Below, piece after piece: positions 1-64,000 of a stretch of 64,000 nt of DNA (position 1 is its first letter; each line of letters starts with the position of its first letter). The stretch spans positions 3,616,001 to 3,680,000 of the forward strand of contig CBDCDZ010000004.1 of assembly GCA_965215565.1 (NCBI GenBank), read 5' to 3'. The stretch comes from Trueperaceae bacterium (GTDB lineage: Bacteria > Deinococcota > Deinococci > Deinococcales > Trueperaceae). Both the position numbers and the translations under genes were made by a program. Under the pieces are notes generated by a model. That model was not told the origin of the DNA. It ran no database searches and saw only the letters and a list, made by a program, of their open reading frames with translations.

Positions 1-425
1 AAGGGAAATTCTTGTAAAAATCTAGCGATGCCTGGTGTCCACTTCGCGGGGGCAAAAAACGGAGCTACAACAGAGTGAAGAGCTTGTCCAAATTCGCTAC
101 CTGGTGAACCTATCAGTTCAACCTCGATAGCCCCAATATCTAATTCTTCCACAAGCTCCTCTGCGGTTTGTTTACCAAGAGGAGAAAGAGACCAGCCCTT
201 ACTATTCTTCTGCTTCAGCGTGAGTTCTTCTTTAGCAAGTGCTTGAAGTTCGCGAGGAATATTTGCAGGTTGTGGGATATAAAGTGCTTCGAAGAGGCTA
301 CCAAGTTCCGATGGGCTAAACCAGCCGGAGCTTTTTCGAAGCTCGAGAACCCGTCCAATCACAAGCACCTTGTCTCTCGCTCGAGGTAGCTGCTGAATCG
401 CTAGGGCTATGTTTGTCCGGCTCAG
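1..425 (-). CDS. Hypothetical protein, partial (runs off left edge), N-terminal winged-helix-like region
   Basis: Not in ORF track. Open minus-strand frame from a CTG overlapping the upstream TGA (CTGA): LSRTNIALAIQQLPRARDKVLVIGRVLELRKSSGWFSPSELGSLFEALYIPQPANIPRELQALAKEEL...GWSLSPLGKQTAEELV...ARFLQEFP. WSLSPLG looks like a wHTH wing. The non-canonical start is uncertain. Confidence 0.6.
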   Translation of the reverse strand, partial: MSRTNIALAIQQLPRARDKVLVIGRVLELRKSSGWFSPSELGSLFEALYIPQPANIPRELQALAKEELTLKQKNSKGWSLSPLGKQTAEELVEELDIGAIEVELIGSPGSEFGQALHSVVAPFFAPAKWTPGIARFLQEFP

Positions 426-1024
426 GATTCTTCTCCCGAAGATAATCTTCTGACCAAGTCTTTAGCTTCTTCAAGAGCTGAGCGCGGAGCTTTAAGCTCT
501 CTTTTTTGTCCTGAACCCTTGAAACGAAGAGAATTTATTGATGTAATCGCTTTGGAGAAATTTGGTGCGTCAAACGGTCCTAAATTGATACACGCTTCGC
601 GGACTTCACTAATAGGTGTCCATTCCTCGAGATTAGAGTACTGGCGTGCCACAGTAACGAGTAAAGCAATCTCTTTCATTGCACCTGCTGTGGATTTATC
701 AAGTTGCCGGGGGCTGATGATTAGTTCTAAATGCTCGCCGTCAAAGTCAAATACCTCTTTAACTTGCTCCAGGGAAACTTCCAAAGAATCGGCTAGCTGA
801 GAGAGAGGTGTATCATTTCCACCCCGATTGGGTTGTGATTTGGAGGTAGAGAAAGCATTATTCTGTGTATCGTTGGTTGAGCTTATGCTTGCTCCTTGAT
901 AAAGAATGTCTATAGTTTTTGTAAAGGCGACATCCCGCAAATCTTTCGGGATTTTCTCCTCTTCAATTAGCTCTCCAACCAGCGTAGAAGCTTCGATTAG
1001 CAGCTCCTTAATATTAGTATTCAT
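422..1024 (-). CDS. Hypothetical protein (200 aa)
   Basis: ATG-started ORF with upstream GAAGGGA, low GC, no recognised family. Confidence 0.7.
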   Translation of the reverse strand: MNTNIKELLIEASTLVGELIEEEKIPKDLRDVAFTKTIDILYQGASISSTNDTQNNAFSTSKSQPNRGGNDTPLSQLADSLEVSLEQVKEVFDFDGEHLELIISPRQLDKSTAGAMKEIALLVTVARQYSNLEEWTPISEVREACINLGPFDAPNFSKAITSINSLRFKGSGQKRELKAPRSALEEAKDLVRRLSSGEES

Positions 1025-1415
1025 ATTTTTTGCTATCCCTTCGTAAATTAGAGTAGGCTTATTTCTTGCTTCCAGATAGGATTTTTAGGTTTTTAGAAGA
1101 TAAGAAGAGCGTAGTTACTAAAATTTATTATAATTTTTCATGCGCAATCTATTTCATCAGATTCTTTTCACTTCAAGCAATTTCAAGGAAAATACTTAGT
1201 TAAAGTTGAATAGAGGCGCAAAAGTCCTTGCATTTGACCATCTAATCTCAAATTCTCCGATATTTAAGTTGAAATCCTTCTGAGCTTGTTTACCTCCTAC
1301 ACACAATCGCTAAGAGCAAACCTAAATAATCCCTCAGAAGATATTAGCACTTCTACACATATTAATCAATACGCAGCTTGGCTCGTCAATCTTTACTAAT
1401 CTAAAATCGATACGA

Positions 1416-3095
1416 CTAATTAGCCCATTTTGGAAAAACGAGCTTGCTAGCTTGGACGTGTTTATCAGCAGGGTAGGCTACCAATTTTAATCTTCTCAGA
1501 TTTGCCAACGCTCGGCTAAACGCACTCGAGTCCTCCGAACGGTCAACGCGCTTCGCAAGTCCTCTGCGGCTTAGGGAGGAGGGATGCACTTCGATAAGCT
1601 CTTCTAAGAGCTGGCGTTCGTATGAGCGCAAGTAGGAGAACCAGCGTTCGTGCAAGTCTGCTAACGTTGCTGGTTTGCTAGGCGCGGGTATGCTGGCTCG
1701 TCCTTGCTCAGTGAGCGCGACTTGTCCCCCTGAAGGATAGACAACGAAACCGTCGCTATGCAGAGATGCGATGTGTCGACTGAACGCGCTCGATTTTGGG
1801 CTTTGCTCAGAGAGCACCGCGAGTGTAGAGCGGTCAAGGCTAGGAACATCTAAAAGTTCCATCTCTGCGAGAACATGCAAGATACGGCGTCGAGGATCGT
1901 CCGAGACTTGCTTAGCTACTGCTGAATTAGTTGGAACTGAAGCTATCCCTATTTGGTGTTTGCTCTGATGATCCGAAGTAGGCAAGCCTCGAGCAACTTC
2001 ACTGTCAGCTCTACCCAAGCGAGAGTCTTGTGAGATGTGAGCTGGTACAAGCTGCGCCGATTCCACGATAACGTTGTCTGCAAGTATTCGAATCTGCTCT
2101 AAAGTACTCTCTATATTCGTGGGGAGAGGTTTGACGGCTCTCTCCATCTCACGCTTCTCCGCCTTTTGTAGAGCGCGAGACTGGGCAGGGGCTCGAACTT
2201 TCTCATTGACCTCTTCCTCGGACGGCGCATCCTGATAACCGAGTCGGAGGTGCTCCAAAAGGTCGCCTAACTTTCTACTTGCGGGCGGTGTTGGGGGGGT
2301 AAGTTGCCCCGGCGCAGGGTGCGTACTTTTAGTGGCAACCGAACGAACTTTGACAACCTCTTGACTGAGCGCAGGACCGAAGGCGAAAAATTCTCCTGGC
2401 TCGAGGGTTTTCAGCTGCCGCCTTTCCTGCATGTTAAAACCAAGCTCCTCCGAAGCGCGTTTCATATCGTTGCCTAAAGTGGTGAGTCCGATAAGGCGAT
2501 TTGAACACATAGCGAGAAGGTTTTTGTTTAAGAGAGCTAGACGCTGAGTCGCCACAACAAGCCCGAAACCTCGTTTGCGACCACGCATCGCTAAGTCAGT
2601 CAGAGTATCAAGGGATGCACTGCCCGTATTAACTTGAGGCGCTAATGTCTGTGCCTCGTCAACGATAACGAGAACGTATCGCCAAGCATCTCGAGAAAGG
2701 CTCATGAGCCCGCGAATCACAGCCGCGCAGATGAAATCGCGCTCTTCGCCTCCAAATTCGCTCAAATCCAGTATGATACTGACGCCTTCAGCGATAAGGA
2801 GACGTGCGGTATTCTCTGCATTTTCTGGCGCGATATCTAAATCTCCGTCTCGCGCCTCGAGAATAATGTAATCATCGAAGACTTCGCGAAGTGTACGGAA
2901 CTCCCCTTCGGGGTCGATGATCAGGTGCTGTACATGTCCGTGAGTGCCCTCAATGAGCGTCCTAAGCAACCAAGACTTACCACTACCAGAGTTGCCTTGT
3001 ATTGCCAATCTGTGTGCTAAAAGACCCTCAAGATTTGCGACAACACCTTTCTTATCATTTGGGTCAAACGATAAAGTAGGTGTAGTGCCTTTCAT
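1416..3095 (-). CDS. HerA/FtsK-family (DUF87-like) ATPase with two C-terminal winged-helix-like repeats
   Basis: Walker A GNSGSGKS, IIDPEGEF, Walker B VIVDEAQ, RGRKRG, ATQR. Duplicated C-terminal motif SSAFSRHIASL / SSAFSRALANL. Confidence 0.8.
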   Translation of the reverse strand: MKGTTPTLSFDPNDKKGVVANLEGLLAHRLAIQGNSGSGKSWLLRTLIEGTHGHVQHLIIDPEGEFRTLREVFDDYIILEARDGDLDIAPENAENTARLLIAEGVSIILDLSEFGGEERDFICAAVIRGLMSLSRDAWRYVLVIVDEAQTLAPQVNTGSASLDTLTDLAMRGRKRGFGLVVATQRLALLNKNLLAMCSNRLIGLTTLGNDMKRASEELGFNMQERRQLKTLEPGEFFAFGPALSQEVVKVRSVATKSTHPAPGQLTPPTPPASRKLGDLLEHLRLGYQDAPSEEEVNEKVRAPAQSRALQKAEKREMERAVKPLPTNIESTLEQIRILADNVIVESAQLVPAHISQDSRLGRADSEVARGLPTSDHQSKHQIGIASVPTNSAVAKQVSDDPRRRILHVLAEMELLDVPSLDRSTLAVLSEQSPKSSAFSRHIASLHSDGFVVYPSGGQVALTEQGRASIPAPSKPATLADLHERWFSYLRSYERQLLEELIEVHPSSLSRRGLAKRVDRSEDSSAFSRALANLRRLKLVAYPADKHVQASKLVFPKWAN

Positions 3096-44772: not shown

Positions 44773-45478
44773 TTAATAATCTTCATGGACAACGTGATTT
44801 TTCTTACTTTGAGTCTCAAGTGCGAGCTTCACCGCGCCCCCAACATGAGTTTGTAAGACGCGAACGCCGTGAGCCTGGAGCCGCTCCAAAACGCCCGTGT
44901 GTGGGTGCCCGTATCCATTTCTGCCGTAAGAAAGAACCGCCTGCTCGGGCTGCGCGGCCCTCAGGAGCGCGTCGGACGTTGAATGTTTCGAGCCGTGATG
45001 CGCCACCATTAAGATATCGACGTCGGGCACGAACAGCTCCCTTTCGACGGGGCTCGAGAGGTCCCCCAAAAAGAGCGCCTTAGTGCCTTTTACGTCCAGC
45101 ACAAAGGCCACCGAGTTGTCGTTGTCGCTCTCGTAAGGGACGGGCGGCGGGTTGAGAATCTCGAGGTCAGCCTCGCCTACGCTCAGCCTTTCGCCGCGCG
45201 TCACCTGCATCACCTTGACGCCCTTGCGCGCCGCAACCTCTAGGAGCGCGTCGAACACGGGTTTACCCGGTGCGGGTGCGCCGATGAGGAGCGTTTGCAC
45301 GGGCATGCCCTCTAATACACTGACGAGCCCTTCGATATGATCGGTGTCAGGGTGCGAGGCGACGACGAGTTCTAGTTCGTCCACCCCTTGCGCTCGCAGC
45401 GCAGGCAGCACCGTGCCCTTCCCCACGTCGAAATCGCTGAAGGGCGTCCCGCCCCCGTCCACTAAAATTTCGATGCGC
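44773..45478 (-). pseudogene. comEC: 3' fragment of ComEC/Rec2 (metallo-beta-lactamase domain) cut by transposon insertion
   Basis: RIEILVDGGG, SHPDTDHIEG, NDNSV, GD, VAHHGS, NGYGHP. The frame ends at the TGT transposon terminus and the Competence/TM domain is absent. Confidence 0.85.
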
Positions 45479-45545
45479 TGTCAGATACAATAATCTATGC
45501 GACTAAACAATAATCCTTGCGACTCTCACAATAATCTCTGCGACT
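45479..45545 (+). repeat. Tn7-like end: 8-bp terminus plus three TnsB-binding-type repeats
   Basis: TGTCAGAT, then ACAATAATCnnTGCGACT at 45487, 45507 and 45528. Confidence 0.85.
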
Positions 45546-45562
45546 GACGTATACTCACCTGA

Positions 45563-47345
45563 GTGAGTGTCGTACCGCCTATCGACAAATTTGTTTTGGG
45601 GGACCAATTATACTTCCTCGACTGGATAGGCGGTGTGACGCACAATCCAGGAAAGTCCAGCGAGCCCCTCATGCAGGTATTCACGAGCCCGGTCATAACG
45701 AACAGCGGCGGCATGTCTTACGGAAAGCAGTTCGCTATGAACGTCGGCGTCGGTTTACTCCCTTACATGAAGATCGGCTCCCTCTGGTATGAAGGCAACC
45801 GTATCGGCCTGTTTCCTCTCCGCAAAGTCACCTTTAAGTTAAGAATCGCATCCGACAACCCCATCGTCTCGACGCTTCAGGAAGCTCTGGGAGATGAGCC
45901 CGGTGCGAGTAGGGGCGGGCGTACAGTACTCGGCACCGCTTTGTTCGACACGATAAGTCGAACGAACTGCTTGGTTTACCGTTATGACACGACGCGCAGA
46001 AAGAAGAGCATACTCAGTAGCATCATCTTCCCGGTCATGGAAATTGTCAGGTTCTACTACGCGACCGGGACGAGGCTTAGCAACGCCCTCTTCACGGGCG
46101 AGGTGCAAGGGGAGGACTTGTCGCGACTGTGCAGTGAGGGTTCGGGTCTCTATGACGACGTCGCCATCGTCAAGCTGAAGTCCGAATACGCCGACAGCTC
46201 TGCTTACATCATCGGCAGATGGCTGGGGTCGCCTCACGCCAGGGCGCAAGCGATTAAAATCTACCAGACTGTCCGCAAGGGAACCATCAACCGGCGGGCC
46301 GACCCTTCGAGCGATCTGCACGTGTCGCCGGAAGTCACCTTTCCCTTCCTCGGACCCACCGATCTGAGTGTCCAAGGCACTTACCTTACCCGAGAGAACG
46401 GCGAGCGACATTTCCTGGTCAGTCGTCTCCTACGCTGCACTGCACCTTTTCCCTACGAGGCGGTCACAGTCGAGCGTCCCCTCGGCAAGATCGAAGAGAC
46501 GTTAGAAGGAGAAGAGGGTAATCCCATCTACAGGCGACCCTTTACTCGGAAGCGCAAACCTAAAGGCAGAATCAAACATCACAACGAACCGAACCTCGGA
46601 CTCCGAACCCTGAGCATCGACCTTTACGAAGAGAACTTCCCCGACTTAGAGAACAAACCCCTCCACAAGACCTACGGGGAAGCCTATATCCACCGCACCA
46701 AGAAGCGGAAAGAGGGCGAGGAAGGGGACGATTTCTCGAGCGGCTCCGGCGTCCACGGCGGCTCGGGTCCTAGAGGTATCAGGCTCAACACCGATCCTGC
46801 GGACGAGCCTCCTAAAGCGCAGAAAAAGCGTGCCACGCCGGTGCAGTTGGCGTTCACTAAAGACGCGCTGGACACGCTCAGGGACGCATATAAAGTTCCC
46901 TATACGCTCCTCGATGCCGACGGTCAGGAACTATCAGAGGGGGAAGGATTCGCACTTCTCCCTAGCGAACTTCGGCTGCTGAACGACTGGGCGGAGTACG
47001 AGGTGGGTGAGGAACAACACGCGCCACGTCCTCATCGCCGAACTCGAGCACGAATCTGGGCTTTTCACCATCTTCGAGGTCGAGCGGCGACTGAGCGGCG
47101 AGAGCGGTCGCTACCGGATGCTCATCGCCCATCTGATCACGATGGGAAGTTTGCGGTGGAATGTCAAAGCGATGCTCCAGGTCTTTGCAGAGGAGCAAAG
47201 GGTGTTCCTACCCGAAAAGAAAGCGTTGCAGGCGCTCAAGCCCAAATATTTCAATCATAAGATCGGAGAGACTGCGCCGGAATTTGCCAAGAGAGTATTC
47301 GACTACATGGAGGCACTAGCGAAGCGATCCCGTAAAGAAGGGTGA
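45563..47345 (+). pseudogene. tnsE: TnsE-like target-selection protein, frameshifted near 47000
   Basis: Blocks resemble Tn7 TnsE as recalled (FPVMEIVRF, IGRWLGS, FPFLGPTDLSVQG...FLVSRL). The C-terminal block RHVLIAELE..FTIFEVE lies in the +1 frame (47007-47345). Confidence 0.65.
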
Positions 47346-53672: not shown

Positions 53673-54639
53673 CTAAGCGGCTAGGCTCACCTCCTGAGTC
53701 TCTTTTCGCTGCTGGGATAGTTCAAAGGTGTCAGGCGTCTCATAGCCGAGCGAGCTGTGCAGCCGCTCGCGGTTGTAGTAGACCTCGATATATTCGAACA
53801 CCGCGACGCGGGCGTCATCGCGTGTGGCAAAGCGCTCAATGGGATAAACGAGTTCGCGTTTTAGTGTCGCCCAAAAGCTTTCAATGATGGCATTGTCGAA
53901 GCAGGCTCCTTTGCCTGTAAAGCTCGGCAGCATCTTGTGCGCTTCGAGTTCGCGCTGATAAGCGTAGGAGGTGTATTGAGAACCCCTGTCGCCTAGGTGA
54001 AGGCTAAGAGCCTTTGAGCTTCGCTCTAACCTTGTGATGAATCAAACCGGGCTGGGGCTTGCGCCGCGTCGTGGCTGAGCATAGGGCTTGCAGCACGAGG
54101 TCAGTCTTCATATTGTCACTCATGGCGTAGCCCACAACGCGCTTAGAGAAGCCGTCAATGACGCCCGCTAGATAAAGCCAGCCCTCGGCGGTCGGCAGAT
54201 AGGTAATGTCAACATGCCATACCTGATTGATCGCTGTTGGGCGTGGTTGTTCCAGCAACAGGTTCTGGGTCTCGAGATCACAGCGCTCATACTTAGTGCG
54301 GTGTTTCTTGTGACTCACAGCGTAGAGCCCTTCACGACGCATAAGACGTTTGACTCTGCCTAGCGAACACGAAACCTGCTGCTTCTTGAGTTCGGCGTGG
54401 ACACGGGGGCTGCCATATCTGCCCTTATTCTTCTCGAATACCGCTTTGATCTTCTCCAACAGCTCGGCGTTGCGCTTTTCGCATTTGCTCGGCTCCCGCT
54501 GCTGACGAGCCCGCCAGTGATAGTAGCTGCTCCTAGCCACGCCCAAGACCTTGCACAGCGCCGAGACGGAGAACTCGCTCTGGTGCGCCTCGATGAACGC
54601 GCACTTTAGGTTGTCTGTTTCGCAAAGTAAATGGCGGCC
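53673..54639 (-). pseudogene. IS3 OrfB transposase (DDE), disrupted in the HSDRGSQY motif
   Basis: YGSPR, WHVDITY, IHH[40-bp insert]SDRGSQY, CFDNAIIESF, YNRERLHSSLGY. Confidence 0.88.
53993..54032. repeat. 40-bp branched-hairpin insertion in IS3 orfB
   Basis: ct-aggt-g-aaggct(aag)agcctt-t-gagc(ttc)gctc-ta-acct. Its removal restores CAC AGC GAC AGG. Confidence 0.85.
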
Positions 54640-54911
54640 TTTTTTACGATCGCCAACTCTGTTTCAAGTCGCTTCACCTCCGCCTGGAGCCGTTTCAGTT
54701 CGGCTTCGTCAGCGGTCGGTTGTGCTCTTTTATGACCCATCACGAGTCGTCCCTCGCGGTATTGTCTACGCCACTTATGGATGTTCGACTCAGCAATACC
54801 CAAGCTCCGTGCCGCCTCGGTGATGCCGTAGCCCTTTTTCTCTACCAGTTCCACCGCATCGATCTTAAACTCCATTGGATACTGCCGAACCACCCTCTTG
54901 CCTTCTGCCAT
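54606..54911 (-). CDS. IS3 OrfA (HTH) with A AAA AAG -1 frameshift site at 54639-54645
   Basis: YPMEFKIDAV, AARSLGI, IVKKAAIYFAK. AGGAGG RBS. Confidence 0.9.
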   Translation of the reverse strand: MAEGKRVVRQYPMEFKIDAVELVEKKGYGITEAARSLGIAESNIHKWRRQYREGRLVMGHKRAQPTADEAELKRLQAEVKRLETELAIVKKAAIYFAKQTT

Positions 54912-55580
54912 CGTCTTCCTCCTTAGCAAAGTCTATTCCTACTAACTTTGTCCAAGGTAGTGGGCCAATGCCAACCTTAGCAAGCGAAGGTGCTCGAGGA
55001 ATAGTACGTAAAATCACAAAGAGATGTACTTTAACGTTTGATGAACGCTCAACGGGAGTTGACGAGGAGAGGCTGCGAAAGCGAACACTCGCCCGTTCGT
55101 TGTCTGGATTGAAGGGGGTCGAGGCTCTCCTCGACGACGCTTTCAAAGCGCTCTATCCGGACACACTTTTCCTTCGTAAAGACGAATTTTGCGGAGGTTG
55201 CCCGGAGACGAAATCGCTCAACGCCAACCCTTTAGCGACCACTGAGAAAGCCGCCAGGTCTTGAACCGATCCGACGGCTTTCTCTCGTTGTAGTTCCCCC
55301 GGCGGAGCACTCTTATTTTAACGCCGTCGTCATATCGAGAACAGGTGTGTACGGACTAGCTAATTCGGGGTTGGAGAACCTACAAAGAAAAAGCTCGAGG
55401 GGACCTCCAACCGGGGGGCGGGATGTAGAAGGTACGGTCCTCGAGACTTTCCTCAGCCTAGCCGCTCTCGGTCCCTCCGAATGAGCCATTGCGTTACCGA
55501 ACGTCACTGTGAAAAGGTTCACTCTTTCCGCCGAGGTGTAACAAATAATCGGAGTAGAGCACAGATTTACTTGCTTTCAC

Positions 55581-55874
55581 ATGTCTATAATTGTAAACAA
55601 AAGTATGATGCTAAAGGTGAAAAAGTCGAGTAAGCGCACCTCTTACGAACGGGCATTCTTTCGAGCAGTAGGTGCACGCATAGAGCTGTTCAGGTTGCGG
55701 CGCGGGCTGAGCTTGGAGGAAGTTGCTGCCCATACAGTGCATCCGCCCGAGTGGCTGAAGGGGCTCGAGGCGGGAGTGGAGGAACCGAGGCTCGACGACC
55801 TATTCGGCATCGCCAAGGCGTTAGGCACCGACCCCAGCGAACTCGTGAGGGTGGAGCCGAAGGTGTTTTCTTGA
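55581..55874 (+). CDS. XRE-family HTH protein
   Basis: VGARIELFRLRRGLSLEEVA...LEAG..EPRLDDLFGIAKALG. True start may be a later ATG/GTG. Confidence 0.8.
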   Translation: MSIIVNKSMMLKVKKSSKRTSYERAFFRAVGARIELFRLRRGLSLEEVAAHTVHPPEWLKGLEAGVEEPRLDDLFGIAKALGTDPSELVRVEPKVFS

Positions 55875-55924
55875 TACGGTCAGCTCTCACGGCAGCATAG
55901 GGGAACGTGTGACACGATGAGGGC

Positions 55925-56164
55925 ATGTCAGGACGCCGCAAGGACCCGGAATACCAGGCTTACAACCGCAAGGTCGGGGAGAGGATCAAGGAGCTGAGGC
56001 GGGATAAGAACCTCTCTCAGGAGGAGTTTGCTGCCGAGGTCGGACTCAGCCGCTCGTACCTGAGTTTGCTGGAGACGGCTAAGCAGGACCCGTCGCTCTC
56101 GACGCTCTTTAGGGTGGCGAAGGTTTTGGGGTTGAGTGTGAGTGAGTTGCTCGAGGTGGAGTAG
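55925..56164 (+). CDS. XRE-family HTH protein resembling restriction-modification controller proteins
   Basis: VGERIKELRRDKNLSQEEFAAEVGLSRSYLSLLE...PSLSTLFRVAKVLG. Confidence 0.88.
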   Translation: MSGRRKDPEYQAYNRKVGERIKELRRDKNLSQEEFAAEVGLSRSYLSLLETAKQDPSLSTLFRVAKVLGLSVSELLEVE

Positions 56165-56180
56165 CGTCACCAGAAACTCT

Positions 56181-57848
56181 TCAGTAATCTATATTCATAG
56201 CTGCACTATCGGCGATTTCGTCTGCTGCTAAAGATAGAGCGTGCCTAAGTGCTTCCTGATTTTCATTCTTGAGCAAGCTGAATCGCGATTGACTCTGTTC
56301 GGGCAAGAGGGTTACGCCCGCCTTTTGAAGAAGTCCTCTATACGCAGGATTAGCCACGAATCCTATCATGTTGGAATAATCGTGCTTATACTTTTCTATG
56401 AAATACATAAGCCTTTCGTAAACCCGCGCTTGAGCTGTTTTATCGCGTTTAGATAAGAGGAAGTCGTAATTCAAAACAGCGGGCTCTTTCACGTAACGCA
56501 GAGGAACAGGTCCGTAAAGCCCGGATAAGAAAACAATGTCGATATCGTTCTCTAGTCCCTGTAAACTTTTCACGACTCGCTTATATGACGATGAGTCGGT
56601 GTACGGTTTAGCCTGAGAACAGGTGAGAATTAGACAGATAGGTTTCTTGGCCTTAAAACGCCTTTTACGTATATCGAAGGCAGTAGGGTCATTTCTGACT
56701 GGCTTCACCTCCACTGCTTCCGGTAGAGGCTCGCCCTCAAGCAAGGCGCGGAGCTGGGCTCTTGGACGAGCTAGTTCAACGAGATAGTCTTCCAGTACGC
56801 CTTTCTCCCGAGCAGCAATTGCCTTATCAAGGATTTGCATATCCATTTCAAGATTGTGAAGTGCAGTCGCAGCATAAACGACACTCTTACGTCCCCGCTT
56901 AACCTCACCTTTTTTGGCTCGCATTACGAAAACATCTTCATGCACATCGCGCGAGTAGCAGACTTGACATGTACATGGATAGGACAAAAGTTCCCAAAGA
57001 CGTCGTTCTTTGTAATTGGGGGTGATGTATTTAAGTGAGCGAGCTTTCTGAATATAACCACTAGTGTCGAAAGTAGTCGCCCCTGCATGTAAGAGGAAAG
57101 GGACGAGAAGTCCGGTGACACCAAAAACATGCATCGGTAACTCTCCTGCAGCGCCACGTACAGCGCGGACATAACGGACGATCTCCTGCTGTCTCCCCGC
57201 CTTTCTTAACGGAACTATGGAACCTAGCCCTACCCCGTGAACGATCTGCATGAGATTTTCCTTGTCGAGACGTTCAAGCACCTCCTGCGTGAAGATGGCA
57301 GCTTGCTCGGGTGTATTCCCGTGAACAGGAACTACAAGATTTATATCTTTATCCGGTCTCTCAGAAAGAATTCTTGCGCAGTAAAGTGCATTTTGAAGTG
57401 TCTTGTTCAGTCGGTTACGCGACTCTTCTTCAGTTAATCCAGGCGGTATCGGGTAATCTAAAGACACAATCCTCGAAGCGCCTAAAGCTAGCTGGAGTTC
57501 GAGAATCTTTTCCTGCATGTTATGTTCAAAGAAGCCGTAGCGATCCAATCCAGCGGGTGGACCCTGCATGAACACGTAACCACCTGAGTCAGCTAAAATG
57601 TGTGCATGATAATCTAAGTCGAAATTGCCATTGTAGTGTTTACGCAGAGGTTTAGACAGCCACATCTCGAGTTGTTTTGGTAGTATGGCACCGTAGTTCA
57701 AAAAGTGTAGTGCTTGAACCATCACGGGTATATTACGCCTCAATAAACCTTGTTCCATGCCATGCAAGAGTTGCTTATACATGCCGCCGCCGTTTGGCGT
57801 TGTACCTGTCATCATAGCCGTAACTGGGTATAGGATAGAATTGTGCAC
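56181..57848 (-). CDS. DpdA/archaeal-type guanine transglycosylase fused to an ArcS-like (DUF5591-type) domain
   Basis: DSGG, SLDYP, PVHG, GSIVP, HVFG, TFDT, CTCQVC...HN, then C-terminal CSQAKPYTDS and SGLYGPVP. Confidence 0.8.
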   Translation of the reverse strand: MHNSILYPVTAMMTGTTPNGGGMYKQLLHGMEQGLLRRNIPVMVQALHFLNYGAILPKQLEMWLSKPLRKHYNGNFDLDYHAHILADSGGYVFMQGPPAGLDRYGFFEHNMQEKILELQLALGASRIVSLDYPIPPGLTEEESRNRLNKTLQNALYCARILSERPDKDINLVVPVHGNTPEQAAIFTQEVLERLDKENLMQIVHGVGLGSIVPLRKAGRQQEIVRYVRAVRGAAGELPMHVFGVTGLLVPFLLHAGATTFDTSGYIQKARSLKYITPNYKERRLWELLSYPCTCQVCYSRDVHEDVFVMRAKKGEVKRGRKSVVYAATALHNLEMDMQILDKAIAAREKGVLEDYLVELARPRAQLRALLEGEPLPEAVEVKPVRNDPTAFDIRKRRFKAKKPICLILTCSQAKPYTDSSSYKRVVKSLQGLENDIDIVFLSGLYGPVPLRYVKEPAVLNYDFLLSKRDKTAQARVYERLMYFIEKYKHDYSNMIGFVANPAYRGLLQKAGVTLLPEQSQSRFSLLKNENQEALRHALSLAADEIADSAAMNIDY

Positions 57849-57888
57849 AGGAAGACCTTACCGTACGAAGAGCGATAAAGCAAGACCT

Positions 57889-58335
57889 TCAAGTAGGAAG
57901 CAGGAATTCGTACCGCAACATTTTGCTTATATTCCTATGCGGGTTATCTACGATAAGAACGGTTTCAGCGTTGCGGTAAAAGCTGCCCCAGAGGAAGTTT
58001 GCTGACCCCACTAGAGCGATTTCATCAGTGATCAAACCCTTGCTGTGCAAGTGAGGAACAATGTGGTGTTTATCAGGCGTAAAGCGCGATAAAAGTGCAT
58101 TGAGCCTCCGGTCCGGTTCTCTCGTATAGATTGAGGTTCGATGCCCCTGTCCTTGTAGATAAAGTAGCAAGGTGCTCAGTCGTTGCGGTCCCGATTTATT
58201 GACAGGATAAGGTAGCTGTAGGGGTAGATCGTCCATCCAAGGGCTGACAATTGCGATGTCACCCTCGCTACTCAACATAATCTGAGGAACCAACCACGGC
58301 AGCTTCTTAGAGGCTAAGAACACGGTTAGGTGCAC
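57889..58335 (-). CDS. Single-domain phospholipase D-family nuclease (DpdK-like)
   Basis: IVSPW, HLHSKGLITD...VGSANF, NAE. Confidence 0.8.
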   Translation of the reverse strand: MHLTVFLASKKLPWLVPQIMLSSEGDIAIVSPWMDDLPLQLPYPVNKSGPQRLSTLLLYLQGQGHRTSIYTREPDRRLNALLSRFTPDKHHIVPHLHSKGLITDEIALVGSANFLWGSFYRNAETVLIVDNPHRNISKMLRYEFLLPT

Positions 58336-61300
58336 CGCTCTCGAGAACCATCGGTAAGTTTTTCCCCTCTCTAGCCCTTTCGGAAAGTTCTTTGTTGCTC
58401 ATCTCTATTATCAGCCTCGATAGTATTGACTCAGCGAGTAACCTTGAAGGCTCCTCGTCACCGATCTGCTGAGTACCGACACAAACGGGGCAGCCATCAG
58501 TTTCTAAACAGGTGTATTGGAATGGCTCCCCACTCGCTCGTTGGTTGATCAACCGGGTAAGTTCGTTTGAAACTTCGACGAAAATATCCTCTGGTAGCGT
58601 ACTCTGGGGATCGGGTAGGTTGAGGCGTGCCACCGTACGCGTACGTAATAGTTGGGCGTCTATACCATCGCGCAATGCCTCTTCAGCTAAACCGACAGGG
58701 CATAGCACAACACGTAGCAGTTCTTGGTAAACCTGAAGTGCATCAGCCTCAAGTGCTTTCTGGAAAACTTCGATAAGACCCGCGCCCCCCTCAAAAACTT
58801 CCCACACCGAAACGTTATTGTCGCCGATCGCAGACTCTAAATCTTCACGGTGCACGCCGACGACACTTGCTACTGCCCGATGAAGCAGCTCTCGAGCGGT
58901 GGCAAGTGCCACTCCTCGGAGTTGCTGCGGCTGCGCTCGTCCCTCACTAAGCTCGTTGAGCAAGTCATCGAGCTGCCATCCAAGTGCTTGCGTGTCTATC
59001 GTATACACCATTGGCTCAAGGTAACGGACTTCAAAGCGGTCTGGATCGCCGCTAGCCCTGAAATACTCTGCGTCCGCGTCTCTATCGTTTGAGTTACTCT
59101 TCAGATAACGATGTGACTCAACGTCAGAACCTAAAACTCTGGTCCTCCCTTGTCCCTCAAATACACGCAGTCGCTCGCTAATACACGTTCCCGTATGATT
59201 TTCGAAACGCCTCTCTAAGTAGGGCTGGGCGTAGAGCTTTCGAAATTCAAGTTGCCCGCCACATTCACAAACCCGCTTACTAAGACTGTGAACCTTGTAG
59301 CATTGCTTACAAAATTTAACGACTTGGCGTCCTTGACGGTCCGTACGGACGCCGCGTAAAGGTACAATCTGAGGACGTACACCCCCTTCTACACTTAAAC
59401 CCTCAATGGGTAAACGCACCCTGACCCTGCTTCCGTCAACCCAATCAGGGTGGTGTTCCGTATCGAGGGTTGCCAAAGTCGTGTCTCCATAATGACGATA
59501 AGTCAGTCTATACGGTAAATAAAGACTCGCTAAGTTGGAAACTTGCTCCTCTATGTAGTCAGAGCTGCCGCTAGAGTAACGCTTTTCGAAACGCAAAGGC
59601 TTTACGGTTTGAAAGTAAGATGAGGGTAGGAGAGAGCTGATGGAGACCGGACAGTTGTTCTCTACGCAGGTGTGGCTAGGTTCGCTTACTGCGTCGACGC
59701 CAGCGTGTAAATAGTAAAGCGAACCTAGCGTTACTTTTATGTCTTGTGGAGACGATTGGAAGGACCACCCTTTATTCCAGTGCTCCTTTAACGTGAAAAA
59801 GAAGTTGTGGAGCCGCTCGTAGTCAGAGATGCTTCCTTCGCCTGTTCGTCTTAGGTTATAGAGGTGAGCCCTAAGGTTAGTAAGCAAGGTCACTACTTCT
59901 GCGAGATGCTCGGCACGTTCAGGTTCATCAACGAGAATCTGGCTTACTTGGCTGATAAGACTATTGGTAGTAAGACGCTGTGTCGGCTGTGCTCCTCCAG
60001 CGAGGTAGTTGTCGATCTGCTCTCGGAATGCATCTAAGTCATTCATCAACTCGGTGGGAAAAGCGCTTCGAAGTTGAGTCAAATGGCGTCTCAAATCGAG
60101 GATAGGTCCGGTTCTCTCTAATTCTCTATCAGCCCAGCCAATCAAAGCATCTTTGAATCCAGAAAGATCGAAGTAGCCTGCAAATCTGTCTCTAAAATTG
60201 TCAAAGTCTTCCTGATACTTAGCACTCAATGTTGGGCAGGCTTCGAGCTGGTCGAGGATGTAACGTGCTATGGCCTTAGGTGGAAAACTTTCGTTTTGTT
60301 GGTAGTACTTGGCATATTGACTACGGTCCCGCTCCAGTCTCTCGTGTAATTGTTGAATAACCGCATTGTCCGTATTGAGGGGGATGTCGAAAACGCCATT
60401 TAGTAACCGTTGACGTCTAAAAAGTGCGAAGTTATCCGGAGCGTCGTTACCCAATATAAGGATGCTATGACTTAGATCGCCTTGCTTTCGTCCAGCGCGT
60501 CCGCGCCTCTGAGTAAAACCTGCTAGAGAACGCGGTGGTCTGTATTGGACAACAGCTTTGATCTGTTCATTGTCCACGCCTACCTCCAGTGTAGGCGAAG
60601 CGACAAGAAGATTGGGACTAAGATTTTTACCCGTCTTCGATGTGACTTGAGCTACTGAGAGAGGCTCTTCACTAACTACTTCTGCTGGTTCATAGCAATC
60701 TTTGCCACCATGTATTCCTCTCCAGCACTCGCCCGCACTATAGATATCGCAGCGCATAGGTTCCTTGCGAGGGCAGGGTTCATTATTCCCATTTAACGGG
60801 TAAGAAATATCTTCGACTACCGTGCGGAATGCCCAAAGCCCTTGATTGTGTTCAGCGTCTCGAAGCTGATTAAAAAAGCGCCCCGTCTGATCGAGAGAAT
60901 CCGCAAAAATGATAACCTTCTCTTGAGGGGTCAAAAAAGCGTGCCCGAGTGCCATAGCGCACTGGATGAGTAAGGAAGACGGAGCAGGGCTTGACTCATC
61001 AGTTGGCGTCTGAAGCGTGACAAACCCTTCTATTCCTCCCAACTCTTGCTCTGCTTCGTAGGCACTTGAAAGAGCCTCGTGTGCTCGGACTCCCTGGTCA
61101 CTCCCGTAAAATAATCGGCTCGCGAAACGTATAGGGTCCGAAATGGTTGCGCTGGCAGCAATGAGCGTGAGTTCTTTGCCAACAAGTTTCTTCAGCCGAT
61201 TGATGAGCTGATGAACGTGGACGCCGTAAAGCGAATCGTACAGATGCGCCTCGTCGATAACAATTCCGCTGAGTCCTGTAAGGAACGGTTCAAACTCCGG

Positions 61301-62194
61301 CCGAAGGTAGAAGGAATCGAGCGACTCGGCTGTCGTTACCATTATCGGTGGGTTTGCCTTGATATGCCCTTCACGCGATATTGACACCGCAAAAGTTTTT
61401 TTGCAATCTGGGCACTCAAGTTCTCGGTAGGGTTGCTCTCCTTTTGGAAGGAGTCGCAATTTGACCTTCGCACCACAGACGGGACATTCTTCTAGCGATT
61501 GAAATTCTCCTGATTCGAAGAGGGGAGAGCCATCATCGTCATATTGATTATCGACCGTTAATTGGTCAGAACGCTTGACGGAGCCGAACTGAATTCCTAC
61601 CGGAATGACATGACCTTGCTGTCGCGCGAAATAGGCTGCGCTCAACACCCGCGCAAGTTGATCCTCAAGCAGGGCGATGCGAGGATAGACTAAAATGAAA
61701 CGCTGGGTGGGGTTCTTCAAAAGACTGTAGATAAGAGGAAGTACGAAAACTTCCGTTTTTCCGGCTCCCGTAGGTGCCGTGATGACGAGTCCAGAGCGAT
61801 TCTCCACTGATCTCAAAACTTCAGCCCAACCGTCGACCTGAAATCTACTAAATTCTGGGTACGGGCTCAGTTTGGCGACAGCTTCCTGTTCGGTCGTAGG
61901 AAAAGTGCTTACGCTGCGAATAGGTCTTGTGCGAGGTATGGCGTCAAAACGGAGGCGTCCAACAAGAACATTGCCGCTTTCGCTCGCTCCAAAGCGCTGT
62001 TTTACCGTCTCCAAAATCCGCAGTAGCTCAAGCGTTCGTGGCACCTTGACACTAGGGGAAAGGGCGACCATATGTGCATCTGTACTGATAGCATTAGAAC
62101 GCCGCGCCACAACCGCCGCATCTGGCGTTGTGTTGTTGCGATTTACTTCTGTGCTAATTCGCTCCAATTCTGCGAGTAGTTCAGGCAGCATCAA
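58307..62194 (-). CDS. Large SF2 DEAH helicase with C-terminal DUF1998-like region (DpdJ-like)
   Basis: APTGAGKTE, YPRIALLEDQ, DEAH, SAT, SPTLEVGVD, QRRGRAGR, several CxxC, EGGAG, GCPVC. Confidence 0.85.
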   Translation of the reverse strand: MMLPELLAELERISTEVNRNNTTPDAAVVARRSNAISTDAHMVALSPSVKVPRTLELLRILETVKQRFGASESGNVLVGRLRFDAIPRTRPIRSVSTFPTTEQEAVAKLSPYPEFSRFQVDGWAEVLRSVENRSGLVITAPTGAGKTEVFVLPLIYSLLKNPTQRFILVYPRIALLEDQLARVLSAAYFARQQGHVIPVGIQFGSVKRSDQLTVDNQYDDDGSPLFESGEFQSLEECPVCGAKVKLRLLPKGEQPYRELECPDCKKTFAVSISREGHIKANPPIMVTTAESLDSFYLRPEFEPFLTGLSGIVIDEAHLYDSLYGVHVHQLINRLKKLVGKELTLIAASATISDPIRFASRLFYGSDQGVRAHEALSSAYEAEQELGGIEGFVTLQTPTDESSPAPSSLLIQCAMALGHAFLTPQEKVIIFADSLDQTGRFFNQLRDAEHNQGLWAFRTVVEDISYPLNGNNEPCPRKEPMRCDIYSAGECWRGIHGGKDCYEPAEVVSEEPLSVAQVTSKTGKNLSPNLLVASPTLEVGVDNEQIKAVVQYRPPRSLAGFTQRRGRAGRKQGDLSHSILILGNDAPDNFALFRRQRLLNGVFDIPLNTDNAVIQQLHERLERDRSQYAKYYQQNESFPPKAIARYILDQLEACPTLSAKYQEDFDNFRDRFAGYFDLSGFKDALIGWADRELERTGPILDLRRHLTQLRSAFPTELMNDLDAFREQIDNYLAGGAQPTQRLTTNSLISQVSQILVDEPERAEHLAEVVTLLTNLRAHLYNLRRTGEGSISDYERLHNFFFTLKEHWNKGWSFQSSPQDIKVTLGSLYYLHAGVDAVSEPSHTCVENNCPVSISSLLPSSYFQTVKPLRFEKRYSSGSSDYIEEQVSNLASLYLPYRLTYRHYGDTTLATLDTEHHPDWVDGSRVRVRLPIEGLSVEGGVRPQIVPLRGVRTDRQGRQVVKFCKQCYKVHSLSKRVCECGGQLEFRKLYAQPYLERRFENHTGTCISERLRVFEGQGRTRVLGSDVESHRYLKSNSNDRDADAEYFRASGDPDRFEVRYLEPMVYTIDTQALGWQLDDLLNELSEGRAQPQQLRGVALATARELLHRAVASVVGVHREDLESAIGDNNVSVWEVFEGGAGLIEVFQKALEADALQVYQELLRVVLCPVGLAEEALRDGIDAQLLRTRTVARLNLPDPQSTLPEDIFVEVSNELTRLINQRASGEPFQYTCLETDGCPVCVGTQQIGDEEPSRLLAESILSRLIIEMSNKELSERAREGKNLPMVLESGAPNRVLSL

Positions 62195-62633
62195 CGTCGA
62201 CCTCTACTCAACTCTGTATTCAGTTGCTTCGAAGCGGTGCTCACTTCATCGGAAGTCTTTGACATTTTATTGAACTCCTCTAGCACTCCAGCGCGTTCGC
62301 TCTTTGCGCTCCCCAAGCAGAGATTGTGGAGAAATAGTCTGAGAAAGGTTACTCCACATTCCCTTTTCTATCTGCTAGCTCTTTCCCCTTCCTTCAGGAA
62401 CTCATCGGTAAAAATTCACAAGAACTAAATGGAAGCGTAACACGACGTAACGACCTGATGCCATAGTGGATTAAGGGCGTGAGGAACTTCACAACTACCG
62501 TTAGAAATGGCCCTAATCTTCCGCTGAACCAAAGGCATTACGCACAGCATCTTGAGACTAGCTTCTTATATTCGAAATAGGTTAGCGTTATGAAGCTTAC
62601 GGCGACTTCAAAGTTTGAGAGAGTGAGATAAGA

Positions 62634-63245
62634 GTGCGAAGAGACGTGTTGATAACGGTTTTAGTAGCCATCTATATCGCTACTGAGTTAGTTTCGAACG
62701 CCACAGCGGGCCGCCTCGTGCAGCTAGGCGCATTTGTCTTCCCTGGAGCGATTTTTCTCTACTCCCTTACCTTTACACTGCGAGATGCGGTGCATACAGC
62801 GGGCGGTTGGCGCGTCGCCAAAGCGCTCATTTGGGCTGGCTTCATCGCGAACGCTATTCTCGCGCTTTACGGGTTGTCCATTAACGCATTTCCTAAACCA
62901 GTCTGGTTCGATGACTCAGCTTACCAAGCAGTGTTCGGAACGACGGCAAGGGTAGTCGCCGCTTCTCTGGTTGCTTATCTCGCGTCCACCTGGCTCGACG
63001 CTCTCATCTTTGAACGTTTCAAGCGCTCGATAGTCAACCGCGTGCTTGCCTCAAATGTCGTTTCTACGTCTGTCGATTCTGTCCTCTTTATTACTATTGC
63101 ATTCGCCGGCACAGGTGCCCCGCTGCTCAACCTCATTGTCGGACAGATAGTCGTTAAGATGATCGTAAGCACCCTACTCATCCCTGTCGTATATTGGGTG
63201 CGGGACACTTTACGTGAACAAGGGTTGGCGATGGAGGGATACTAG
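62634..63245 (+). CDS. yhhQ: Queuosine precursor (preQ0/preQ1) transporter, YhhQ/Vut_1 family
   Basis: FTLRD, RVVAASLVAYLASTWLD, SNVVSTSVDSVLF, GQIVVK. Adjacent to queC. Confidence 0.85.
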   Translation: MRRDVLITVLVAIYIATELVSNATAGRLVQLGAFVFPGAIFLYSLTFTLRDAVHTAGGWRVAKALIWAGFIANAILALYGLSINAFPKPVWFDDSAYQAVFGTTARVVAASLVAYLASTWLDALIFERFKRSIVNRVLASNVVSTSVDSVLFITIAFAGTGAPLLNLIVGQIVVKMIVSTLLIPVVYWVRDTLREQGLAMEGY

Positions 63246-63941
63246 ATGTCAAGAGCAGTCGTTCTACTCTCGGGTGGACTCGACTCCGCTACAGCAGCTG
63301 CACAGGCTATCGCAGACGGCTATGATCTCATGGCCCTTTCCTTCCGATATGGTCAACGTCACGAACGGGAACTCGAAGCTGCTAAAGCGGTAGCCGAAGC
63401 GCTGCACATTCAAGAGCACTTCGTTAGCGACGTCAACTTGGCACAGTGGGGTGGGTCGTCTCTCACCGATGAAGATATAGACGTGCCTACAGGAGGGAGC
63501 GACGCGAATGCCATCCCCTCGACCTACGTTCCCGGACGCAACACCGTCTTCATTGCGATTGCGCTCTCGCTCGCCGAGGCGAAAAACGCTGAAGCCATAT
63601 ACCTCGGTATCAACGCCGTGGACTACTCGGGTTATCCTGATTGTCGACCTGAGTACTTAGAAGCGTTCAAAAATCTCGCTGAGCTTTCGAGCAAAGCAGG
63701 ACTTGAAGGTAATGCGCCTAGGCTTGTTGCCCCACTCGTTATGGACTCGAAGGCAGACATCGTCAGGCGTGCCCTCAGGCTAGGTGTGCCCATCGAGAGT
63801 ACATGGTCCTGCTATCAAGGCATGGAGGAGCCGTGTGGAGTCTGCGATTCCTGTCGTATCCGTGATCAGGCTCTTATTAAAGCAGGGAAAGCAGACTTAG
63901 TCGGCTCCTTCAATTTATCTCGCGCTGTCCCGAGTTGCTAG
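63246..63941 (+). CDS. queC: 7-cyano-7-deazaguanine (preQ0) synthase
   Basis: [39 protein letters not shown]. Confidence 0.96.
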
Positions 63942-64000
63942 CCCCTGGTTCATTGTCCGCTCCAATAAGGTTCTTATAGCTTTCGGCAAAAAGTGAAAGC

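Follow-up and report, generated by a model that had tools for sequence, protein, structure and literature searches.

The stretch analyzed here (hereafter the window) comprises 64,000 nucleotides of the genome of a Trueperaceae bacterium (contig CBDCDZ010000004.1, below C4, positions 3,616,001 to 3,680,000), and carries, inside a Tn7-family element, a five-gene cluster that we predict to be a compact deazaguanine-based restriction-modification (R-M) system. Three of the genes form a minus-strand operon, namely a 1295-aa superfamily 2 (SF2) helicase related to DpdJ, with DEAD and Helicase_C domains and a probable C-terminal MZB/DUF1998 zinc domain (58307..62194), predicted to act as the restriction translocase; a 148-aa, DpdK-like nuclease of the phospholipase D (PLD) family with a single HKD motif and a match to PLDc_2 (57889..58335), the predicted effector; and a 555-aa fusion of a tRNA-guanine transglycosylase (TGT) barrel (residues ~1-375, Pfam TGT) to an ArcS core (residues ~385-540, DUF5591), the predicted DNA-marking enzyme (56181..57848). 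Divergent from these, on the plus strand, a YhhQ-family transporter of 7-deazaguanine precursors (62634..63245; PF02592 (Vut_1) and TIGR00697 above cut-off) directly abuts a canonical QueC (63246..63941; TIGR00364, 229 bits, above cut-off), which takes 7-carboxy- or 7-amido-7-deazaguanine (CDG/ADG) to 7-cyano-7-deazaguanine (preQ0). None of the five open reading frames (ORFs) contains an internal stop; the PLD frame overlaps the helicase stop by 29 nt, and 40 nt separate the PLD stop from the fusion start. The layout, sizes and strands proposed in an earlier reading of the letters alone (the original prediction) were recovered intact, as was its lower GC content, the operon standing at 48.9% against a genome mean of 58.1 ± 2.6% (equally low in 1 of 732 segments of 6 kb) and yhhQ-queC, less extreme, at 53.7%. 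No riboswitch or other RNA family was detected in 54900-64000 at E ≤ 1, and promoter and terminator matches across the cluster did not rise above those in shuffled sequences. Immediately downstream of the operon lie pieces of an IS3-like transposase (HTH_Tnp_1 and a truncated rve) and a small gene with an XRE-type helix-turn-helix (window 54004-54929 and 55581-55874).

The two predicted restriction genes resemble those of the canonical Dpd system. DpdJ is the best match of the helicase in both PADLOC and NCBIfam, at 168 of 800 bits (below the equivalog cut-off), and residues 49-616, including the stretch ahead of the helicase core, match the profile of canonical DpdJ (E 8e-59); judged on homology over that range, the helicase is a true DpdJ relative. 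Its Walker A, DEAH, SAT and QRRGRAGR motifs are intact, while the resemblance of its C-terminal half to MZB/DUF1998 clusters (score 0.93) serves as a lead only. The nuclease matches the DpdK model at E 3e-10 and 37 of 100 bits, again below the equivalog cut-off, and carries the motif H97-x-K99-x4-D104, in which H97 and K99 are invariant in six of six orthologs. The DpdJ and DpdK types assigned earlier to these two proteins correspond to the PADLOC models that they match, in both cases below the cut-off.

The fusion belongs to a family of 90 proteins including the query, 89 of which carry both TGT and DUF5591; a profile search returned 158 cluster representatives at E ≤ 1e-30, a figure that counts in fragments and non-fused relatives. 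Its short N-terminus is common to close relatives and so does not reflect truncation. Conservation was scored over 52 family rows, in all of which D87, D131 and H176 are kept, with D261 in 51. The features of an active enzyme of the TGT/DpdA superfamily are all present, that is, two catalytic aspartates (D87, D261), the base-binding aspartate (D131), a stacking aromatic (Y91) and a zinc site (C292/C294/C297/H331, CxCxxC-H). The site residues described for Salmonella DpdA, Asp95/Phe99/Asp130/His181/Met208-Val209-Pro210/Asp256 (PMC10164549), have as their counterparts here, in order, D87/Y91/D131/H176/I211-V212-P213/D261. According to the same source, a Val-Pro-Leu loop excludes preQ1 in preQ0-specific transglycosylases (PMC10164549); the fusion carries this loop as V212-P213-L214, with V and P each kept in 51 of 52 rows, which points to preQ0 rather than preQ1 as its probable substrate. 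The full-length model (pLDDT 94, pTM 0.90) places the barrel on archaeal TGT (arcTGT) 1iq8 with Z 32.9 and an rmsd of 2.6 over 315 aligned residues, the score against the arcTGT model TIGR00432 being 83 of 350 bits. Neither Pfam nor the structure model revealed a PUA or C2 domain in the fusion, and two search patterns recovered no relative of it from viral contigs that would suggest a phage origin.

The C-terminal domain exceeds the Pfam cut-off for DUF5591 and, folded alone (pLDDT 94), matches the archaeal ArcS-core structure 2q07 with Z 16.2 and an rmsd of 2.0 over 129 aligned residues, the next row scoring 7.4. The earlier description of the transglycosylase as a different, fused type thus gains an identity for its fused part, the ArcS catalytic core, beside a barrel that branches apart from DpdA. 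Among viral folds, the top match of the domain is ArcS2 of phage nt-1 (E 5e-6, TM 0.72); folds of the YaaA/DUF6884 type rank lower (5caj, Z 6.1), and given this likeness the modeled domain may possess a DpdC-like activity. All 52 rows keep the ArcS-type C410-x3-KPY, and of the motif PC-x3-KPY-x2-S-x2-H the fusion keeps C, K, P, Y and S, with Thr409 for the first P and Tyr422 for the last H. ArcS2 of nt-1, reported as active, is likewise slightly degenerate in this motif (PMC10516641). On plasmid DNA in E. coli, nt-1 DpdA2 alone yields preQ0 in DNA (dPreQ0) and, together with ArcS2, deoxyarchaeosine (dG+) (Cui et al., PMC10516641), whereas nt-1 DNA itself is described as holding both dG+ and the ADG deoxynucleoside dADG (Hutinet et al., PMC6884629), a source in which it is also suggested that some phage ArcS proteins may hydrate the nitrile, as DpdC does. 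Archaeal ArcS is reported to transfer lysine and to require RaSEA to finish (PMC11298593). Because the fused domain is an ArcS catalytic core, a base beyond preQ0 is predicted, with the core likely modifying preQ0 further. Among products, dG+ leads at a little under even odds, dADG is somewhat unlikely, and an amine adduct or a reaction that stops at dPreQ0 would each be quite unlikely, to the same degree.

Canonical dpd genes were found neither among the ORFs of the other 34 kb of the element nor in the host genome (99.99% complete), which argues that the cluster is not a clipped canonical Dpd island. Twenty-six proteins from three canonical Dpd clusters, in which DpdD was named by NCBIfam and DpdE to DpdI were assigned by gene order, were searched against the genome with tblastn and matched only the helicase of the cluster itself, apart from weak helicase-core matches of the query in the DpdF position; there was no match for canonical DpdA, and nothing further for DpdD to DpdI. 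TIGR03187, the model of DpdB (DGQHR ATPase), was unmatched in the genome and tblastn with DpdB proteins came back empty; for DpdC (DUF328/YaaA), PF03883 was unmatched in the genome and PADLOC gave no DpdC match. The fusion itself did not match DpdA models (NF041059, PADLOC DpdA) at E ≤ 0.01. On these tblastn and model searches, the idea that a canonical set lies somewhere else on the element or in the genome was rejected. The original prediction had seen no dpdB, dpdC or dpdD-H within the window and had allowed for a complete dpdA-K set just past its edge; the former absence extends to the rest of the element and genome, and the search for the latter came out negative.

Precursor supply follows an unusual pattern in this host, which has its own tgt, queA and folE, no match for queD, and for queE a weak radical-SAM match only, with none by tblastn; the single QueF match of the genome falls inside the folE gene and was discarded. 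The cluster queC is the sole full-length queC match in the genome, and neither of two same-genus genomes has a queC above cut-off. QueC converts CDG to preQ0 via ADG, and YhhQ is reported to carry preQ0 (PMC5372724). With queD and queE not found, de novo preQ0 synthesis was ruled out and, with no queF downstream, QueC serves neither de novo synthesis nor the host queuosine pathway; most likely, yhhQ-queC upgrades imported or recycled CDG or ADG. Of the original statement that QueC makes preQ0, the canonical family therefore stands, above the TIGR00364 cut-off, but synthesis from the start of the pathway does not, and of the supply genes proposed for a check of the element, folE was present (in the host) while queD and queE were not found. 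The pattern recurs at two further loci (L028, L036), where the cluster is accompanied by yhhQ-queC together with a deoxyribosyltransferase; both are from incomplete metagenome-assembled genomes that have no other queC and no convincing queD. Of three other genomes tested for supply genes, one had both queC and a queD-family gene, and a second had a queD-family gene without queC.

The carriage of the cluster by a Tn7-like element, also proposed originally, was borne out. The element spans 52,120 bp, from window position 45479 to C4:3713598, and is bounded by perfect 13-bp terminal inverted repeats (TGT...ACA) with three repeated putative TnsB sites per end, the near end occupying 45479..45545 (plus strand). 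At its far end, ~29-33 kb past the end of the window, lie tnsA-tnsB-tnsC-tniQ. It interrupts the host comEC, the 3' portion of which, with the Lactamase_B domain, remains within the window (44773..45478, minus strand), while the Competence domain lies past the other end; comEC is uninterrupted in both of two same-genus genomes, with which the rejoined host frame agrees. Tn7-family elements usually generate a target duplication of 5 bp. The 4-bp duplication found here (window 45475-45491 and C4:3713586-3713602) is unusual, yet it is outweighed by the tns gene set for assignment to the Tn7 family.

Other genes accompany the cluster on this element or nearby. A 565-aa ORF at the element end (window 45563-47260, plus strand) has no Pfam, NCBIfam or usable Atlas match; a 26% paralog at C4:2978359 is separated by ~42 kb from another tnsABC-tniQ set (C4:3019873-3024216), and this ORF may be a target selector of these elements. 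As further cargo, outside the window, the element holds an ABC transporter alongside a lanthipeptide synthetase (RamC_N, kinase, LanC-like; L002:13529-17946); an XPB-like helicase paired with a DUF790 nuclease gene also lies inside it (L001:13906-16565). In low-GC DNA at the start of the window (422-3095, minus strand), a HerA/DUF87 ATPase and an unannotated 200-aa partner possibly constitute another defense locus.

The wider distribution of the fusion and its neighbors was assessed from both directions. One peptide pattern found 80 fusion loci in the genome collection, for which neighbors within 6.5 kb were considered and neighbor families were named by scanning 100 and 64 selected neighbors; 41 of the 80 loci are from Poribacteria, so that rows are not independent. 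Partners comprised the helicase type of this cluster (7 loci), PLD (5), DUF262 with HEPN (9), NurA-HerA (3), a DpdH-like protein (3), DrmA (1), a distant DpdJ-like helicase (2) and a DNA methylase (14), and 23 of the 39 loci outside Poribacteria had a nuclease or helicase module. Precursor-supply genes occurred at 20 of the 80 (queC at 10, queD at 8, queE at 6, yhhQ at 7) and a nucleoside deoxyribosyltransferase at 2, whereas homologs of DpdA, B, D, E, G or I were seen at none. Starting instead from the helicase, we found it in 2 of 364 genomes of the phylum of the host (one being the host), the same two that carry the fusion; in 3 of 401 Chloroflexota genomes, all within the 5 with the fusion; and in metagenomes as 1 close match among 79 loci, from a scan of 5 out of 64 parts in which generic helicases made up most of the matches. 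Close relatives of the helicase adjoin a fusion in five of five non-self cases, two of which (G470 and L086) lie outside the fusion-first set. Dependence thus runs one way, the helicase needing the fusion but not the reverse, and this one-sidedness is what a restriction arm with a protective modifier would be expected to show. Widely distributed and free to change partners, the fusion is bound neither to this helicase nor to Tn7 elements; like R-M methylases, it also occurs with other nuclease modules or by itself. Patchy distribution, low GC content and transposon carriage all fit defense cargo.

Several of these loci have features of their own. In the closest Deinococcota relative (L004:8109-9485), a PD-T7-1-like defense gene sits between the PLD and fusion genes, and queD-queE-queC replaces yhhQ. 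At five haloarchaeal loci (L031, L042, L045, L046, L050), the fusion is joined by another TGT, of 420 aa and His-type, as well as a DUF6884/YaaA protein, a GHKL ATPase and queC-queE-queD, a combination suggestive of two marks per island, and L071 has two fusion genes plus DpdH- and DpdJ-like genes. At 5 of the 80 loci (L019, L021, L023, L065, L067), in some cyanobacteria and Poribacteria, the fusion adjoins comEC-like genes, possibly a common insertion hot spot.

With a probability of roughly 60%, we read the cluster as a three-gene, DpdB-independent deazaguanine R-M system, a prediction from sequence that agrees with the variant or minimal system on a Tn7-like element originally proposed. YhhQ would import preQ0 or its precursors and QueC would turn salvaged CDG/ADG into preQ0, a flow suggested by the missing queD, queE and queF. 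With no need of a DpdB ATPase, the TGT barrel would then put preQ0 in the place of guanine at specific sites in DNA, the target implied by the genomic context, and the ArcS core would attach a nucleophile at the nitrile (ammonia most likely, yielding dG+); modification past preQ0 would presumably also block back-exchange. As homology and co-occurrence suggest, the DpdJ-like helicase would engage unmarked DNA, which the PLD nuclease would cut.

A number of observations weigh against this R-M reading. By E value, the barrel is nearer to the tRNA-acting arcTGT (2e-33) than to DpdA 7ui4 (4e-4), and in a quick tree of 43 barrels, a branch with SH-aLRT 94 separates the 30 fusion rows from 4 DpdA and 5 arcTGT. 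No target-recognition domain was identified in the cluster. The histidine of the ArcS motif, present in 19 of 52 family rows only, is Tyr422 here, which leaves the reaction product uncertain. Lacking queD and queE, the mark would rely on outside supply, a risky arrangement for a constitutive restriction arm. The PLD gene is absent beside three helicase-fusion pairs (L015, L032, G470), in two of which (L015 and L032) other nuclease-type genes come after the helicase. Lastly, 30 of the 80 fusion loci, mostly from Poribacteria and some on short contigs, lack any searched partner.

This last count, together with the 14 loci near methylases, three Poribacteria records with two copies at different loci, and the exchange of partners that is general in defense islands, is what would be expected if the fusion marked DNA as a solitary modifier, whether for protection from other restriction enzymes or as an epigenetic mark, and if the helicase and PLD were a co-travelling module that does not read it. 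We consider this unlikely, as the helicase had the fusion beside it in each of the five non-self cases, is a DpdJ relative and is tightly packed with the other two genes in one operon.

The affinity of both domains to arcTGT and ArcS, their closest solved structures and NCBIfam matches, raises instead an enzyme that writes archaeosine into tRNA or other RNA as a one-chain arcTGT-ArcS, and the PUA domain it lacks is reportedly dispensable for arcTGT. However, canonical arcTGT is encoded elsewhere in five of five archaea carrying the fusion, the host retains a tgt and a queA of its own, and the neighbors of the fusion are DNA nucleases, helicases and methylases. None of three genomes of the genus has a match to TIGR01210, which we take to be the RaSEA-like family. 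His176, conserved as noted above, aligns with His181 of 7ui4, and tRNA enzymes have Gln at that position (six of six rows checked). The canonical DpdA proteins fetched also have Gln there (four of four), which counts against the R-M reading as well, and this residue was accordingly rejected as a diagnostic DNA-versus-RNA marker and is suggestive at most. Overall, an RNA target appears improbable.

Slightly more improbable still is an enzyme directed at invaders, which would excise or re-modify deazaguanine in modified phage DNA or tag foreign DNA for the helicase and nuclease. Defenses against deazaguanine-modified phages have been described (Dag glycosylases; GrwAB), and the fusion is paired with a GmrSD-type DUF262 protein at 9 of the 80 loci; yet the supply genes at 20 loci fit insertion of a base rather than its removal, and the DUF262-HEPN pair also matches stand-alone defense models. 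We hold it very improbable that the acceptor of the deazaguanine is an effector-regulating protein or small molecule, a role proposed for TIM-B proteins and demonstrated in type IV CBASS. TGT-like barrels and QueC-like proteins are reported to hold such defense roles, and Cap10 is a weak match to the fusion (E 1e-4), but QueC here is canonical and far from QatC, the nucleic-acid TGT site of the barrel is complete and its zinc subdomain retained, and the cluster has no cyclase.

Under the R-M reading, the cluster can be set beside several known systems. It shares with the Dpd system of Salmonella Montevideo (dpdA-K), as described in PMC10164549, the catalytic and preQ0-pocket residues of the transglycosylase, a DpdJ-related helicase with a DpdK-like PLD after it, preQ0 supply genes and location on a mobile island. 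It differs in having three core genes rather than eleven, with no DpdA ortholog, DpdB, DpdC or DpdD-I, an arcTGT-like transglycosylase with an ArcS core, and a helicase and PLD below equivalog cut-offs; by analogy it would work like Dpd, yet on DpdA, B, C and D-I it falls outside the Dpd family. From the accounts of Vibrio phage nt-1 (PMC10516641, PMC6884629), DpdA2 and ArcS2 likewise combine a DpdB-free DNA transglycosylase with a stand-alone DUF5591 domain to give dG+, but as two separate phage proteins directed against host restriction, whereas here one chain is encoded in a cellular genome beside restriction-type genes. Archaeal arcTGT (TgtA) and ArcS offer the closest solved folds, the Val-Pro-Leu preQ0 pocket and the C-x3-KPY-x2-S motif, and the fusion departs from them in lacking PUA and C2, in joining an active barrel to an ArcS core, in having His for Gln and a replaced motif His, in scoring far below the TIGR00432 and NF040592 cut-offs, and in belonging to a genus in which no RaSEA-like gene was found. 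DISARM resembles the cluster in its SF2 helicase, DUF1998-type domain and PLD logic, and one fusion locus (L012) adjoins drmA-drmB. In BREX-related capture (BRC) systems, a TGT has been proposed to work without DpdB and DpdC (PMC12839542), as would the fusion. The cluster differs from both in having no methylase, separate DrmB, PglZ, BrxC or HerA.

A stronger form of this reading, which we hold as possible but doubtful, is that one polypeptide writes archaeosine or a new preQ0 amine adduct into the chromosome without DpdB or DpdC, that the helicase and one PLD make up the whole restriction arm, and that the base is scavenged as CDG/ADG, which would make this the smallest such system. The literature searches brought up no account of either the fusion or the cluster, although supplements lay outside the search and an earlier mention is possible, and current defense-system models miss the fusion. 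In the literature consulted, dG+ in DNA is reported for phages; cellular Dpd systems use dPreQ0 or dADG and have eleven genes, with the roles within the restriction half left unassigned (PMC10164549). A three-gene version would make the roles of DpdJ and DpdK, and archaeosine as a cellular self mark, directly testable, and one chain able both to insert a deazaguanine base and to complete it would offer a simple DNA-labeling tool. If this stronger reading is true, the fusion would be a plug-in marker, like the methylase of an R-M system, used by several nuclease modules of unrelated kinds in bacteria as well as archaea.

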